Origin: an uncultured Chloroflexia bacterium
GTDB taxonomy: Bacteria > Chloroflexota > Limnocylindria > Limnocylindrales > CSP1-4
Assembly (NCBI GenBank): GCA_963746855.1
Contig: CAVVDC010000012.1
Location: 100,230-164,229 of the forward strand
Direction of reading: 5' to 3'
DNA length: 64,000 nucleotides
Both the position numbers and the translations under genes were made by a program. The notes below the pieces were generated by a model. That model did not search any database. It saw nothing but the letters and a program-made list of their open reading frames with translations, and was not told where the DNA came from. Shown piece after piece: positions 27,363 through 32,894 of the stretch (its first letter is position 1; the number at the start of each line of letters is the position of its first letter).

Positions 27363-29063
27363 TCATGTGGGCATCGTCCGCAGTCGTTCGATGAGCCAGT
27401 CGGCGCCCTTGACGAGGTTCGGCAGGTCGATCGACTCGGTCGACGGGCGATCCGTCGGGCGGCCGAGCAGGTACCCCTGGCCGGCCCCGATGCCGAGCGA
27501 TCGGACGACCTCGAGTTGGGCTGGTGTCTCGATCCCCTCCGCGACGACGAGGGCGCCCCAACGGTCGGCCAGGTCGCGCAGGGTCTTGACGATCTCGAGT
27601 GACGTCTCGCGGACCGCGCCGCCCTGGACGAGCGACAGGTCGATCTTGACGATGTCGAAGCGCAGCTGGCTCAGGAGCCGCAGCCCGGCATTACCGGCTC
27701 CGACGTCGTCCGCGGCGAGCCGGATGCCGGCGACCCGGCAGGCCTCGCATGCCCGGCGCAGCCGGTCGACGTCCTCGACGGCCTCGCGCTCGGTCAGCTC
27801 CAGGACGATCAGCCGCGGATCCAGGCCGTGTCGGACGATCATGCGCAGCAACGCGTGGACGCTGAAGTCGTCGCTCTCGAGCGTGCGCGGCGACAGGTTG
27901 ACCGTCAGCGACCCGGGCAGGCGCAGGCGGGCCGCCGTCTCCATGACGGTGTTGAGGCAGGCGATGTCGAGCTCGCTCGTCCGCCCTGTCGCCTCGGCGG
28001 CCTCGAACAGCGATCCGGGGTCGTTGAACCCGCTGTCGGGCAACGGCCGCACGAGGCCCTCGTAGCCGCGCGGCGCGCCGGTCGACAGGTCGAAGATCGG
28101 CTGGAAGACCGCCCGGATGGCGCCGGTCGCGGCGACCTGCGCGACGGCCGCCGAGAGCTCGGCCTGCGGACGCTCGGTGACGTGGTTGTCGTGGCGCGCG
28201 GCGTCGTAGATGGTCACGCACGTGCGGCCGTGGCGCTTGCTCCAGAAGAGCGCGCTGTCGGCCTGCCGGTAGAGGGCCTCGCGGTCCTTCGCGGGGGTGG
28301 GCCCGGCACCGATGCCCGCCGAGAACGAGACCGTGTGCGCGGCGCCACGACCGGTCTCGCCGTCGAGACATGCGGCGAGCAGCCGGCGGACCATGACCTG
28401 GGCGCCCTCGGTGTCGGTGTCCGCGAGGATCAACGCGAACTCATCGCCGCCGATCCGGAACGCCCGATCGGAGCGGCGCATGTAGGCCGCCATCGTGGTG
28501 GCGGCCTGGCGCAGGACCTGGTCCCCGGCGGCGTGGCCGCTGGAGTCGTTGATACGCTTGAAGTCGTCGAGGTCGAGCAGGGCCAGGGCCATCGAACGAC
28601 CTGTCCGGACGGCGAGCGCCCACTGGCGCTCCATCTCCTCCTGGAACGCCCGGTGGTTGCCGAGGCCGGTGAGCGTGTCCCGGAGCGCCTCGGCTCGGGC
28701 GCGGTCGTAGGCGTCCTCGAGGATGCGACGGCCCTCCTCCAGTCGTTCGGCCGGTTCGAGGACGCGGCGGGCGAGCCAGACGGTGAGGGCGCCGAGGAGC
28801 AGCGCCATCGAGATGAGGGCGACGGTCGGCACGATGAGGGAGGTGCCCGATCGTGCGGTCAGGCCGTAGATGAACGGCGCCGCGATGAGGATCGGGATCG
28901 CGAACATGATGATGAGCGCGAGGAACAGGCGAAGACGGACCAGTCGCAGGTTCGTCGACTCGCCTAGGAGCACTTCCGGAGCCGATGGATCGTCGCGGAT
29001 GGTCCTCTCCCAACGTTGAGTGAGGTCTGTTATAGCCGGGATGGGTTGCCGTCGGACGAACAC
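27363..29063 (-). CDS. membrane-anchored GGDEF-EAL protein (diguanylate cyclase/phosphodiesterase)
   Basis: N-terminal TM helices. RRSD-x5-GGDEF (I-site plus active-site motif), an EAL domain with the variant YEGLVRP, DDVGAG, EGIETPAQL, QGYLLGRP. Confidence 0.9.
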   Translation of the reverse strand: MFVRRQPIPAITDLTQRWERTIRDDPSAPEVLLGESTNLRLVRLRLFLALIIMFAIPILIAAPFIYGLTARSGTSLIVPTVALISMALLLGALTVWLARRVLEPAERLEEGRRILEDAYDRARAEALRDTLTGLGNHRAFQEEMERQWALAVRTGRSMALALLDLDDFKRINDSSGHAAGDQVLRQAATTMAAYMRRSDRAFRIGGDEFALILADTDTEGAQVMVRRLLAACLDGETGRGAAHTVSFSAGIGAGPTPAKDREALYRQADSALFWSKRHGRTCVTIYDAARHDNHVTERPQAELSAAVAQVAATGAIRAVFQPIFDLSTGAPRGYEGLVRPLPDSGFNDPGSLFEAAEATGRTSELDIACLNTVMETAARLRLPGSLTVNLSPRTLESDDFSVHALLRMIVRHGLDPRLIVLELTEREAVEDVDRLRRACEACRVAGIRLAADDVGAGNAGLRLLSQLRFDIVKIDLSLVQGGAVRETSLEIVKTLRDLADRWGALVVAEGIETPAQLEVVRSLGIGAGQGYLLGRPTDRPSTESIDLPNLVKGADWLIERLRTMPT

Positions 29064-29116: not shown

Positions 29117-29716
29117 GTGCACGCTGCGTCGATGTTCATCCTGTACGGGGTCCTGGTCGGGCTCCTGATCGGCGTCGTGACCGGCGGTTCCGCGGCGTTG
29201 CTGGGCCGGCTCCGCTTCCGCTGGGGCGCCGTCGTCATGCTCGGCATGGCCGCCCAGCTGCTCCTGTTCTCGTCGCCCATCGGTGACGCGCTCGGGCCGG
29301 CGGCGCCAGCGGTGTACATGGCGACCAACGGCGTGGTGCTCGCTGCGGTCGCCCGGAACCTGGCGATCCCCGGGCTGCCGCTGGTCCTGCTGGGGGGCTT
29401 GGCCAACCTGCTCGCGATGGTCGTCAATGGCGGCTACATGCCGGTCAGCCGCGCCGCGCTCGAGGCGATGAACCGGGCGCCGGGCGATGGTGGCTACTCG
29501 AACAGCGCCCTGCTCGACCACGTCCAGCTGGCGCCCCTGACCGATATCTTCGCGATGCCCACCTGGCTGCCGGTCGCCAATGTCTTCAGTGCGGGTGACG
29601 TGCTCATCGGCGCCGGCGTCGCGATCGCGATCGTCGCCGGGATGCACGGCCGCGGGCCACGACTGGACGCGGCCCCGACCGCTCCGGCCGACCCCATTGG
29701 TGCGCCCGGACACTGA
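29117..29716 (+). CDS. DUF5317-like polytopic membrane protein
   Basis: 199 aa with 5-6 hydrophobic helices. NGGYMPVS and FSAGDVLIGAG motifs as I recall them for DUF5317. Confidence 0.65.
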   Translation: MHAASMFILYGVLVGLLIGVVTGGSAALLGRLRFRWGAVVMLGMAAQLLLFSSPIGDALGPAAPAVYMATNGVVLAAVARNLAIPGLPLVLLGGLANLLAMVVNGGYMPVSRAALEAMNRAPGDGGYSNSALLDHVQLAPLTDIFAMPTWLPVANVFSAGDVLIGAGVAIAIVAGMHGRGPRLDAAPTAPADPIGAPGH

Positions 29717-29815
29717 CCCGCACGGGCACGGTGAGTAGGACCATCGCGTCATGGTGACGGGACCATGGTCCGCCCACATTTCGAGGAGGGAACGAAGGCC
29801 GTTTCCGCGATCGCC

Positions 29816-29898
29816 ATCGTCCAGGGCAAACCCGTCGCGAGGCGGGGACGCAAAGCCAGGGATCTCCTTCGGGAGACCGCCCAGCCGCCGTTGACGGT
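29816..29898 (+). promoter_or_regulatory. c-di-GMP-I (GEMM-I) riboswitch aptamer
   Basis: AUCGUC-CAGGGCAAACC-CGUC-GCGA-GGCGGGGACGCAAAGCC-AGGGAUCUCC-UUCG-GGAGACCGCCC-AGCCGCCGUU-GACGGU. The CAGGGCAAACC...GGGACGCAAAGCC core matches the Vc2 riboswitch as I remember it. The P2 helix is capped by a GNRA loop (GCGA), there is a second hairpin, and a closing helix AUCGUC/GACGGU. Confidence 0.7.
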
Positions 29899-29928
29899 CG
29901 TCAGGTGCACAGCCACAAGGTAGGTGCC

Positions 29929-30018
29929 GTGAAGGCGAACCTGGCGCGCTTCACCATGGCCGTGTCGCTTCTGGCGACGATGGCCCTGTCCCTCGGCGCG
30001 GGCATCAAGTGGTATTGA
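29929..30018 (+). CDS. 29-aa hydrophobic micropeptide immediately downstream of the riboswitch
   Basis: GTG 29929 follows AAGGTAGG. The peptide is MKANLARFTMAVSLLATMALSLGAGIKWY (one TM helix after K/R residues). 27 of 29 third positions are G/C, like bona fide genes here. It is below the ORF-track size cutoff. Confidence 0.4.
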   Translation: MKANLARFTMAVSLLATMALSLGAGIKWY

Positions 30019-30146
30019 CCATGAACGTCATGTTCGTGGTCTCTGCCCATGTGCTGTCCGACAGCGGTCGACCCGGACCCGAATCCGGTCATCGCTGGCG
30101 CTGAACTGATGGCGGCCGAGCGACCTCCGGGTCGGTCGGTCCCGCG

Positions 30147-30174
30147 GAGAGCGGCCCCGCCCGGGGCCGCTCTC
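30147..30174 (+). terminator. perfect 12-bp hairpin between the riboswitch-sORF unit and the GGDEF-EAL gene
   Basis: GAGAGCGGCCCC-gccc-GGGGCCGCTCTC followed by TCGATTCC. Confidence 0.5.
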
Positions 30175-30215
30175 TCGATTCCGGGCATAGGACTTTCGGG
30201 TGGGCGTCGAGGAGG

Positions 30216-32894
30216 ATGGTCGGGGCGACACTGACCGCCACGGGACGCCCCAGTCGACGAGCTTGCATGCCCCAACCCTCCGGATCGCCGACATCGACAC
30301 GTTCAGCCGAGCAGACTGACGGACCTCCGCCGCTGACCGCGGCCATGGAACGGCCGCCTTGGCTGGATGCCGCCGTTCGCGTTCGGCTGTTCATCGTCAG
30401 CCTGGTGATCGTCGGGATCTTCGGCTACCTCGCGTTCGTGCGCGACATGGCCCCCGTGCCCGGGGGCATCATGCTGTTCTGGCCCCTGGCGGCCCTGGGC
30501 TTCTACCTGGGCGAGACGAACGTCGTCGTGGTCCATTTCCTGCGCGAGCGTCACTCGTTCTCGCTGAGCGAGCTGCCGGGCGTGATGGGCCTGTTCCTGC
30601 TGACCCCTCCCGACTACGTGCTGGCCTACGTCGTCGGCGCCGGTGCGGCGCTGCTGCTCGATCGCAACCAGTCCGGCGTCAAGCGCGCCTACAACATCGC
30701 CCAGGTCTGGATCTGCGCGATCGTCGGGCTCGTGGTCTTCCATGCGATCGCCGAACCGAGCGGGCAGCTCGTGCCCCGGGACTGGATCGCGGCGTTCGCG
30801 TCAACCGGCGCCACGGCGACCCTCGGTGCGGTCCTGGTCGCCACCGTCATCTCGCTCTCGGGCGGGGCCCCCCAGTTCACCAAGCTGCCCGAGATGATGC
30901 GGTTCAGCACGATGGTCGCGATGGCCAATACAAGCCTGGCGCTGCTGGCGGTCATGGTCATCAAGGAGGACGCGCGATCGGTCCTGCTGCTCGCGGTGCC
31001 GACGGCCATCGTGTTCCTGGCCTATCGCGCCTACATCGGCGAACGGGAGAAGCACGAACGCCTCGAATTGCTGTACGAGTCGAGCCGACTGCTGCACTAC
31101 GCGCCCGAGCTCGACTCGGCCATCGCGGCGCTGCTGGACCACGCTCGCAAGATGTTCCGGGCCGAGCGCGCCGAGCTCCTCCTGTTCCCCGATCCGAACG
31201 GCGAAGGCGCCCTCCGGTCGAGCGCCGGCGGCGCGGCCGGACCCGAGACCATGACGCCCCAGAAGGTGCCGCTCGCCGACTCGCTCCGGGCCCGCGTCCA
31301 GCGCGAGCGCGGGGCGTTCCACGCGACCGTGACCTCGGCGTGGACGCTGCAACCGGAACAGGTCGAAGAGGCGATGGTCGGTCCGCTCGTCGGCGAGCGC
31401 GGCGTCTTCGGCGCGGTGACCATCATCAACCGGCTCGGCGAGGGCAGTCGCTTCGAGGCGGATGACCTGCGCCTCCTGGAGACCGTCGCCAACCAGGCCG
31501 CGGTGGCGCTGGAGAACGGCCAGCTGGAGCAGTCCCTGCACGAGCTGTCCCGGCTCAAGGAGCAGCTCCGCCACCAGGCCTATCACGACTCGCTGACCGG
31601 TCTCGGCAACCGGGCCCTCTTCGTCGAGGAGGTCGAGCGCCGGCTCGCCGGGCCGCGCGACCCGGCGGCGCCGCCGTGCATCGTCTTCCTCGACCTCGAC
31701 GACTTCAAGGTCGTCAACGACACGTTCGGACACCCCTCGGGCGATGAGCTGCTGGTCGATGTCGCCGAGCGCATCGGGGCGGAGCTGCGCGACGGCGACC
31801 TGCTGGCGCGATTCGGCGGCGACGAGTTCGCCGTTCTGCCCGGCGAGGGCGCGAGCGTCGAGGACGCCATGGCGCTGACCCAGCGCATCATCGTCGCCCT
31901 CGAACTGCCATTCCCGGTCGCGGGGACGGACGTCATCGTCGGCTGCAGCGTCGGGATCAGCGTCGCCCGCGGTGGCGAGCTCGTCGACGAGCTCCTCCGC
32001 GACGCCGACGTCGCGATGTACCGGGCCAAGGCGGACGGCAAGCGTCGGGCCGAGGTGTTCGACCCGAAGATGCATCGCTCCATCGTCGAGCGCCACGAGC
32101 TGAACACGGACCTCGGCCGGAGCATCAGCCGCGGCGACCTCGCCGTGCACTACCAGCCGATCGTCGAGCTGACGACCGGCCGGATCGTCGGCGTCGAGGC
32201 GCTGGTCCGCTGGCGTCACCCGACCCGCGGCATCGTGGACCCGGCCGACTTCATCCGGCTCGCCGAGGAAAGCGGCAAGATCGTCGCACTGGGCCGCACG
32301 GTCCTGCAGGCCGCCGCACAGCAGGTCGTGGCCTGGCATCGCCTCCCGGGCCTCGAGACCCTGGCGCTCAGCGTCAACCTGTCGCCGCTCCAGCTCCAGC
32401 ACAAGGGCTTCATCGACGAGGTCGTGGCGGACCTGCGCGAGTCAGGCATCGATCCGGGCGACCTGACCTTCGAGATGACCGAGACCGCGATGTTCCGGGA
32501 CACGCAGGCCACGATCGTCACCCTCGAGTTGCTGCGGGCCCTCGGCGTCCGGATCGCGATGGACGACTTCGGCACGGGCTACTCGTCGCTCGCGTACCTG
32601 CGCCGCTTCCCGGTCGACATCCTCAAGATCGCGCGCGAGCTCATCGGGGCGCCCGGAGAGGCCGAGCGCGAGGCCTGGGCGTTCGCGAAGGCCATCCTCG
32701 CGCTGGGCCGTTCACTCGGCCTGACCGTCGTCGCAGAAGGCATCGAGACCGACGAGCAGCTCCGGATGCTGCGTCGCCTCGGGTGCGAGCTGGGCCAGGG
32801 CTACCTGTTCGGCCGACCGGCCACGGCCAAGGAGATCGAGGCCCAGCTCATCGAAGGCGTGACCGGCCCCCTCGGCCAGCGGGTCACGGCCTGA
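30216..32894 (+). CDS. polytopic membrane GAF-GGDEF-EAL protein (diguanylate cyclase/phosphodiesterase)
   Basis: About 8 TM helices, a GAF-like segment (...[39 protein letters not shown]), RDGD-x5-[38 protein letters not shown]. The start is uncertain: ATG 30345 ([18 protein letters not shown]...) is a plausible alternative. Confidence 0.9.

Follow-up and report, generated by a model that had tools for sequence, protein, structure and literature searches.

The analysis of a 64,000-nucleotide (nt) stretch of contig CAVVDC010000012.1 (assembly GCA_963746855.1, an uncultured Chloroflexia bacterium, Limnocylindrales, CSP1-4; G + C content 70.7%), called here the window, revealed a riboswitch aptamer for cyclic dimeric guanosine monophosphate (c-di-GMP), followed by two short open reading frames (sORFs), A and B. 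A known aptamer class thus carries a new, unannotated peptide family as its cargo, and this arrangement is undescribed. Its evolution marks sORF A as a genuine protein-coding gene on which purifying selection acts. The reading that we favour, with fair but not strong confidence, is that the region 29788..30174 is a compact, self-terminated cassette consisting of a hairpin, the aptamer, a Shine-Dalgarno (SD) region, sORF A, sORF B and a terminator, in which c-di-GMP would control A, B would be translationally coupled to it, and the product would have a membrane partner. The parts of the cassette are as follows.

29788..29806, plus strand: P0, a small hairpin (-7.4 kcal/mol) at about 10 nt from the 5' end of the aptamer.
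29816..29893, plus strand: aptamer of the c-di-GMP-I riboswitch class (Rfam RF03167, 60.8 bits, gathering score 59, E-value 7e-12).
29917..29926, plus strand: SD region AAGGTAGGTG, assigned from GGAG/GAGG statistics over 136 unique copies.
29929..30018, plus strand: sORF A, a 29-amino-acid (aa) single-pass transmembrane-like micropeptide, MKANLARFTMAVSLLATMALSLGAGIKWY, conserved in more than 150 copies.
29929..29954, plus strand: nucleotide-invariant block GTGAAGGCGAACCTGGCGCGCTTCAC, the first 26 nt of sORF A, with a predicted start-codon hairpin.
30019..30039, plus strand: hairpin CCAUGAACG-UCA-UGUUCGUGG directly after the stop codon of A, holding the AUG of B (-9.5 kcal/mol, z-score -3.7).
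30021..30104, plus strand: sORF B, MNVMFVVSAHVLSDSGRPGPESGHRWR and a stop codon, with an ATG start; a divergent paralog of A with a C-terminal [AS]-G-[HQ]-R-W.
30147..30174, plus strand: terminator-like hairpin GAGAGCGGCCCC-GCCC-GGGGCCGCUCUC followed by UCGAUUCC (12 base pairs (bp), -27.3 kcal/mol, z-score -5.3).

The comparison is based on two sets of sequences. The genome set was gathered with the protein encoded downstream, which carries GGDEF and EAL domains, as the query and one genome per species, and it comprises 79 loci, the closest of which are Chloroflexota metagenome-assembled genomes (MAGs) labelled Limnocylindria/Limnocylindrales, Chloroflexia and similar. A tblastn search detected the sORF A peptide in 24 of the 79 loci; together with the window this gives 28 copies from 25 genome sequences, as three loci hold two copies each. 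The more distant loci with GGDEF-EAL homologs, from Actinomycetota and other phyla, gave no sORF A copy at a significant E-value. Metagenome contigs were scanned with the pattern GTGAARGCNAAYCTNGCNCGNTTYAC, in which the wobble positions were left free, and at least 127 instances were found on at least 120 contigs; going by the contig names, the matches listed come apparently mostly from soil and sediment samples. Statistics on unique copies (134–136) combine the genome and metagenome cassettes.

The frame of sORF A runs from GTG 29929 to TGA 30016-30018 and reads VKANLARFTMAVSLLATMALSLGAGIKWY, with Met as the in vivo start. A sequence-only reading of the window had proposed this frame as a translated membrane micropeptide, and the related sequences support that proposal. 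The frame itself, its G/C third base in 27 of 29 sense codons (G + C at codon positions 1/2/3 of 0.53/0.50/0.90) and its place as the first reading frame after the riboswitch, starting 35 nt past the aptamer, were all reproduced. The G + C content at third positions (GC3) had also been offered as an argument for translation; here the value stands but is not sufficient, because a minus-strand open reading frame (ORF) at 29901..30275 has the same third positions, so that GC3 alone cannot name the strand and a comparison between relatives is needed.

In the comparison, the reading frame of sORF A is intact over 28–38 codons in 134 of 134 complete copies, free of the stops and indels that the sequence-only reading had named as grounds for giving the gene up, and Trp28 is present in 133 of them. 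Among the genome copies, identity to the window peptide is 46–90% and the start codon is GTG in every case; the consensus of the 28 copies is VKANLARFTxAxxLLAxxALxLGAGx[KR]W with 0–7 further residues, its C-terminus being fixed as G-A-G-x-[K/R]-W. The metagenome matches listed add up to at least 93 distinct peptides of 28–38 aa. Upstream of the GTG lies AAGGTAGG (29917-29924), and a GGAG or GAGG begins 9–13 nt 5' of the start codon in 122 of 136 unique copies, the share among random 14-mers drawn from these loci being 11%. The recurrence of the ORF, its start codon, the SD and the C-terminal motif in more than 150 independent copies is more than chance would give.

The pattern of substitution is that of a coding sequence. 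In codons 10–28 of 27 genome copies, the column entropy at codon positions 1/2/3 is 0.73/0.29/1.14. Residues A16, A19, G23, A24 and G25 are unchanged in these copies and yet are each written with three or four different codons, residue 27 alternates between Lys and Arg through AAG, AGG, CGG, CGC and CGT, and the hydrophobic positions hold T as the second codon base; in our tabulation, the invariant Ala, Gly and Trp residues are credited with three to four wobble bases. The pooled ratio of nonsynonymous to synonymous polymorphism (pN/pS) is lowest in the frame of sORF A (0.51 versus 1.04 and 3.9 in the two other frames), which answers the question of synonymous and nonsynonymous conservation that the sequence-only reading had raised. 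Taken with the SD, the intact frames and the hydropathy, these results indicate a translated gene under purifying selection and not an RNA element.

The peptide has the makeup of a small single-pass membrane protein, since it has fewer than 50 aa and a single hydrophobic segment long enough to span the membrane. The mean Kyte-Doolittle hydropathy over residues 8–26 is 1.78 in the window and 1.80 ± 0.16 in 134 copies. The segment is flanked by K2 and R7 on the N-terminal side, which bears out the basic N-terminus ascribed to it from the sequence, and by [KR]27-W28 on the C-terminal side.

sORF A is nearly absent from current annotation, as had been expected from its size. Searches with A and B against Pfam-A gave no match at E-values up to 10, and the only NCBIfam match was PsaJ (E-value 0.08, 12.8 bits, cut-off 69). 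As the minimum query length for a collection of 5.8 billion proteins was 40 aa, an artificial A + B fusion was used there; no more than 14 proteins shared words with it, each unnamed or "hypothetical", and most of them read through the aptamer. Such false long ORFs of 60–100 aa translate the aptamer (including IVQGKPVARRGRKARDL) into sORF A and so mask the riboswitch and the true start (P0003, P0004, P0006, P0009-P0013 and many of P0135-P0242). When 1.84 billion representatives were searched with a profile, partly contaminated by translated-aptamer columns of mis-called ORFs, 109 clusters were obtained, all but one of them short ORFs of 28–181 aa; the exception was a weak match (E-value 7e-4) in a 769-aa protein, and the search revealed no relationship to any larger family. 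Likewise, the literature searches returned nothing on micropeptide cargo, DUF5317 or c-di-GMP-I-GGC genes, and nothing relevant on c-di-GMP riboswitches with small membrane proteins or on Limnocylindria and c-di-GMP, which agrees with the sequence-only reading, to which no described membrane micropeptide under a c-di-GMP riboswitch was known.

The covariance-model score of the window aptamer reaches the curated gathering score, which places it in the c-di-GMP-I clan CL00126. In the genome loci scanned, aptamers and sORF A copies occur one to one, each aptamer 34–43 nt 5' of its sORF, and in 116 of the 124 metagenome matches listed with enough flank the aptamer core lies 105–123 nt 5' of the GTG. 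The core formed by CAGGGCAAACC and GACGCAAAGCC is invariant in 28 of 28 genome copies. The Rfam label needs a closer reading. Matches labelled RF03167 score 59–67 bits, just over the gathering score of 59, and the sister aptamers under 59 bits, including that of the closest relative (locus L024), are reported as RF01051 (47–60 bits, gathering score 35). The "GGC" in the name of the RF03167 variant is said to refer to a G at the pocket position, and the family consensus reads GACGCGAAGCC, in place of which GACGCAAAGCC stands in the window and in every relative; A occupies the diagnostic position in 28 of 28 genome copies and in 115 of 115 metagenome copies among the matches listed, so the G for A that marks the variant is found in neither the window nor its relatives. 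A scan of 199 loci for the G-variant sequence gave a single match, in L012, outside the aptamers. The nucleotides that contact the ligand are G20, A47 and C92 in the numbering of Vc2, where A47 stacks between the two guanines of c-di-GMP; we take the A of the present aptamers to be the equivalent of A47, and the C92 equivalent (GCCCRGC) was read from the alignment by eye and not rigorously mapped. Given the A at the diagnostic position, the aptamer is treated as canonical c-di-GMP-I despite its "GGC" label, and c-di-GMP is its likely ligand, going by these nucleotides. One further aptamer, a c-di-GMP-II-GAG variant (RF03169, 58.9 bits), was seen at L017 6779..6864 (plus strand), in the same locus as a class-I cassette.

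The sequence-only reading had held the second sORF to be less convincing, and this view is overturned by the relatives, in which its frame is kept together with a fixed C-terminal motif. sORF B follows A in 25 of 28 genome copies and in 97 of the 116 metagenome copies listed, with about five more carrying a QQRW variant, and in most copies it starts 2–5 nt past the stop of A or overlaps it (GTGATG). Its commonest form is a 33-aa hydrophobic peptide, MTRMLKAQAFRVVLVLSALASSALVLEAGQRWK, which is 43% identical to A over 28 residues; by this identity, B is a paralog of A. The length of B ranges from 9 to 35 aa, down to mini forms such as MQPLAGHRW and MAPDAGRRW, and among the 134 unique cassettes B is hydrophobic in 57, longer and non-hydrophobic in 45, a mini form in 12 and absent from 20. 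In the clade of the window, the central part of B differs between copies in its sequence and its length, with the frame kept, and RPGPx[AS]GHRW is conserved while the wobble bases of its Pro, Gly and His codons vary, which makes 30021..30104 a genuine member. In 93 of the 97 metagenome copies listed, the motif has CGC as its Arg codon. The motif that even a 9-aa B retains might serve as an epitope for binding or cause arrest, or it might reflect a constraint on the RNA. The hairpin around the AUG of B is also found in L001, L003 and L004, and the geometry of this hairpin with the stop of A suggests translational coupling.

Several unusual forms of the cassette were observed. In L020 (7380..), G-H-R-W-H-stop stands in the frame of A past its TGA with no start codon of its own, which could be read-through or an assembly error, and protein P0001 is a natural A-B fusion of 61 aa. 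The cassette is duplicated in L003, L004, L012, L084, L093, L102, L130 and L132; in seven contigs the duplicates are in tandem, about 490–560 nt apart, and in L004 the copies flank a GGDEF-EAL gene at a distance of about 3.2 kb. Of the two copies in L003 and in L004, one no longer has B or has only a frameshifted relic of it.

The RNA on both sides of the aptamer also carries constraint. In P0, five pairs show compensatory double changes (RNAalifold, 28 copies). Codons 1–9 of sORF A are nearly invariant as nucleotides (entropy 0.2/0.2/0.4), and the exact block GTGAAGGCGAACCTGGCGCGCTTCAC is present in 124 of the 127 metagenome matches listed, though the search pattern permitted 2048 synonymous variants. 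The block folds as a 9-bp hairpin enclosing the start codon (-10.3 kcal/mol, z-score -2.7), and CCUGGCG (nt 12–18 of sORF A) complements the 5' strand and junction of the aptamer, CGUCCAGG; for the start hairpin and the aptamer/ORF helix, pairing is compatible in 93–98% of cells. Given the conserved first 26 nt, the expression platform probably reaches into sORF A.

At the 3' border, a stem of at least 9 bp (G-U allowed) occurs within 260 nt past the stop of A in 121 of 126 copies, and one of at least 10 Watson-Crick bp in 73 of 126 copies versus 2.8% of random segments. The tails of these hairpins hold 3.5 T per 10 nt versus 1.46, and several relatives have classical U-tracts. A simple scan of 29600-30500 with a strict U-tract rule left the window hairpin uncalled, and the terminator was then defined through the hairpin statistics. 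The genes around the cassette are these.

29117..29716, plus strand: DUF5317 membrane-protein gene (Pfam PF17248, E-value 4e-24).
30345..32894, plus strand: membrane-GAF-GGDEF-EAL gene (Pfam GAF, GGDEF and EAL; GC3 rises from about 30350), part of the context and no constant partner.
27363..29063, minus strand: gene for a 566-aa GGDEF-EAL protein with a second transmembrane segment, ALISMALLLGALTVW, at residues 82–96.

In nearly all genome loci, the DUF5317 gene lies about 100 nt 5' of the cassette on the same strand, and it precedes the cassette in 76 of the 86 metagenome instances listed with enough flank. On the 3' side, the neighbours vary. A GGDEF-EAL gene follows on the same strand in the window, L001-L004, L019 and L024; in other species it sits 5' of DUF5317, in at least 10 species the gene 3' of the cassette is convergent and unrelated (PadR-like, serC-like, LuxR-type ATPase and others), and elsewhere an acetolactate-synthase-like gene lies more than 570 nt 3' of the cassette. 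As the downstream gene varies by species, nothing but the two micro-ORFs is constant in the cargo of the riboswitch. L014 has a single ORF (614 aa, cut at the end of the locus; minus strand relative to the cassette) in which DUF5317 is joined to the membrane-GAF-GGDEF protein that elsewhere has a neighbouring gene to itself, a fusion that links DUF5317 to c-di-GMP enzymes. The search for DUF5317 homologs gave only stand-alone close relatives among the 120 matches listed, which is no guide to domain architecture. The segment ALISMALLLGALTVW of the 566-aa protein resembles B and the C-terminal half of A (LATMALSLGAGIKW, residues 15–28; 8 of 14 residues identical; E-value 0.057 against three proteins), a weak similarity that may be compositional or a mimic of a transmembrane helix.

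The interval from the DUF5317 stop codon to the aptamer (29699..29815) has conserved blocks of its own, namely an inverted repeat over the stop codon (GGTGCG...GCAC TGA CCCG), a GGTAC...GGGTCAT block and an A-CGTTCG block; the window also has a perfect palindrome, GGACCATGGTCC, at 29760-29771. These blocks may act as promoter or operator, or as a site of processing.

In the mechanism that we propose, binding of c-di-GMP would alter the access to the SD and the GUG start. As these adjoin or sit inside conserved structure, the translation of A would track the level of c-di-GMP, a form of control that appears well grounded in the anatomy of the cassette. A ribosome terminating on A would open the hairpin that holds the AUG of B, and B would be translated by coupling. 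Peptide A would insert in the membrane and act there on a larger membrane protein, most likely that of DUF5317 or one of the neighbouring GGDEF-EAL enzymes through its membrane domain, which would make it either an output of the c-di-GMP signal or part of a feedback on that signal; we regard this last step as tentative, possible rather than probable. The narrower proposal that two G-x-R-W paralogs, of which one is tethered in the membrane and the other is, in some lineages, soluble or vestigial, dock on DUF5317 or on the GGDEF-EAL membrane domain, and that the riboswitch micropeptides would in this way steer c-di-GMP turnover or the output of DUF5317, is a speculation that we judge unlikely.

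Several observations weigh against the mechanism as a whole. All source sequences are uncultured MAGs and metagenomes, and translation and regulation are read from their evolution only. The partner is a guess from the gene neighbourhood, and the AlphaFold2 (AF2) model of DUF5317 (predicted local distance difference test (pLDDT) 75, predicted template modelling score (pTM) 0.71) gave no significant match in the PDB, with a best Foldseek E-value of 2.1. With its 9–35 aa, and non-hydrophobic in the window, sORF B is a poor fit to a pair of membrane peptides, and the mechanism leaves the role of its C-terminal motif unexplained. Both candidate helices at the start of sORF A are nearly invariant with almost no covariation, and as the columns hardly vary, covariation neither supports nor rejects the two pairings. 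Moreover, constrained folding of 130 copies, with the aptamer junction blocked or not, showed no consistent change in the accessibility of the SD and start. The tail of the window terminator is U-poor. Finally, a simple scan of 29600-30500 revealed no sigma-70 promoter, so the cassette may be co-transcribed with the DUF5317 gene.

An alternative is that A and B are leader peptides (upstream ORFs, uORFs), perhaps with arrest at G-x-R-W, which control read-through of 30147-30174 into the GGDEF-EAL gene and would lack any function as peptides in their own right. The cassette does lie 5' of such a gene on the same strand in the loci named above, B can shrink to 9 aa and keep only G-H-R-W and the stop, in which it is similar to arrest or leader peptides, and the Arg of its motif is nearly always CGC. 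Such a control requires a constant regulated gene downstream, but a GGDEF-EAL gene follows in only 7 loci, a strong hairpin ends the unit, and in the species with a convergent, unrelated neighbour nothing is left downstream to attenuate. The distance from motif to stop varies over 0–8 aa and that from stop to hairpin over 4–50 nt, and A, in contrast to leader peptides, is kept along its full length as a hydrophobic helix. We consider this explanation improbable.

We give the same low credence to the idea of a small toxin that damages membranes, of the type I or holin-like kind and made up of A with B, whose synthesis c-di-GMP would gate in place of an antisense RNA. In size, in its single hydrophobic helix and in its charged ends, A resembles TisB-like toxins, its expression is tightly structured, with the GUG in a hairpin and structure near the SD, and tandem duplications occur in several contigs. 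The linkage to DUF5317 and c-di-GMP enzymes points, however, to a role in signalling, and a C-terminal epitope that B keeps even when soluble is unexpected for a pore-forming helix. The simple promoter scan gave no site on the opposite strand, no dedicated antisense-RNA search having been made, and the Pfam and NCBIfam searches were without a match, PADLOC and other toxin libraries not having been searched.

That the frame is untranslated and its conservation reflects only the RNA structure of the expression platform, a possibility raised by the sequence-only reading itself, was rejected as very improbable. It holds in part for codons 1–9, whose additional nucleotide-level constraint extends to the wobble positions of the first 26 nt, which can fold or pair with the aptamer. 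It is contradicted for codons 10–28, where variation falls mainly on third positions and leaves the amino acids unchanged, invariant residues make use of all four Gly and Ala codons, and Lys and Arg are exchanged by multi-base changes; frame-breaking indels are absent from the 134 copies, the SD, start and stop are conserved, and pN/pS is lowest in frame. The minus-strand ORF 29901..30275, of 124 codons, shares the GC3 phase of sORF A and its frame is open across A in 111 of 134 copies, but it is scarcely conceivable as the real gene and was rejected, since GC3 in that phase drops to 0.53–0.73 outside sORF A, the ORF would cross the terminator hairpin, B and the SD, 23 of 134 copies have stops within the 84 nt alone, and no conserved start or stop was seen.

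The reading of the region as a c-di-GMP-controlled micropeptide cassette bears on how riboswitches are interpreted. Riboswitch regulons are usually read from the annotated gene downstream, and here the conserved cargo is invisible to annotation; other "orphan" or "gene-less" riboswitches may likewise conceal micropeptide genes. A putative membrane micropeptide pair is added to the outputs of c-di-GMP signalling, and DUF5317 is tied to c-di-GMP enzymes via its neighbourhood and one fusion. If docking on DUF5317 were true, it would be the first functional handle on this family, and c-di-GMP would, by way of micropeptides made under its riboswitch, govern its turnover or an output that depends on DUF5317. 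With its nucleotide-invariant start, sORF A would exemplify an expression platform that lies within coding sequence. At about 390 nt, the cassette is common in soil and sediment metagenomes and can easily be tested in a heterologous host.

Among known systems, the c-di-GMP-I riboswitches (GEMM-I; RF01051/CL00126), exemplified by Vc2 of Vibrio cholerae and Cd1 of Clostridioides difficile, share with the cassette the aptamer architecture, a core match above gathering and a neighbourhood of c-di-GMP genes. The cassette differs from them in its cargo, two micro-ORFs of 28–38 and 9–35 codons and not an ordinary gene, in its own terminator, in the conserved RNA that reaches 26 nt into the ORF, and in the RF03167 label without the diagnostic G. 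The leader-peptide and riboswitch-like leaders (mgtA/mgtL, mgtCBR with mgtM/mgtP, TnaC, SecM and MifM) likewise place a short ORF in a structured, ligand-responsive 5' region, and B resembles them in its conserved C-terminal motif; the cassette differs from them in that A is conserved over its full length, the geometry of motif, stop and hairpin is not fixed, and no constant gene lies downstream. The nearest in kind of product are the small single-pass membrane regulators MgrB (acting on PhoQ), MgtR (MgtC), AcrZ (AcrB) and KdpF, which also have fewer than 50 aa and one transmembrane helix, are often encoded near the gene of their partner and are missed by annotation. They have no sequence relationship to the present peptides, which are two paralogs with a common C-terminal G-x-R-W and a partner guessed from the neighbourhood, and to our knowledge none of them is under a c-di-GMP riboswitch.

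The closest precedent in logic is the glutamine riboswitch that controls gifB (IF17), together with the "Downstream-peptide" glutamine aptamer RF01704 of cyanobacteria (PMC6212724). Its ligand is glutamine, its aptamer and phylum are different, and its products are soluble enzyme-inactivating factors (PMC6212724) and not hydrophobic 29-mers. In both cases, an aptamer stands directly before the gene of a short regulatory protein or peptide, and the gifB-type products act on the pathway of the very molecule that is sensed (PMC6212724), the kind of feedback that we infer for the micropeptides of the c-di-GMP cassette.

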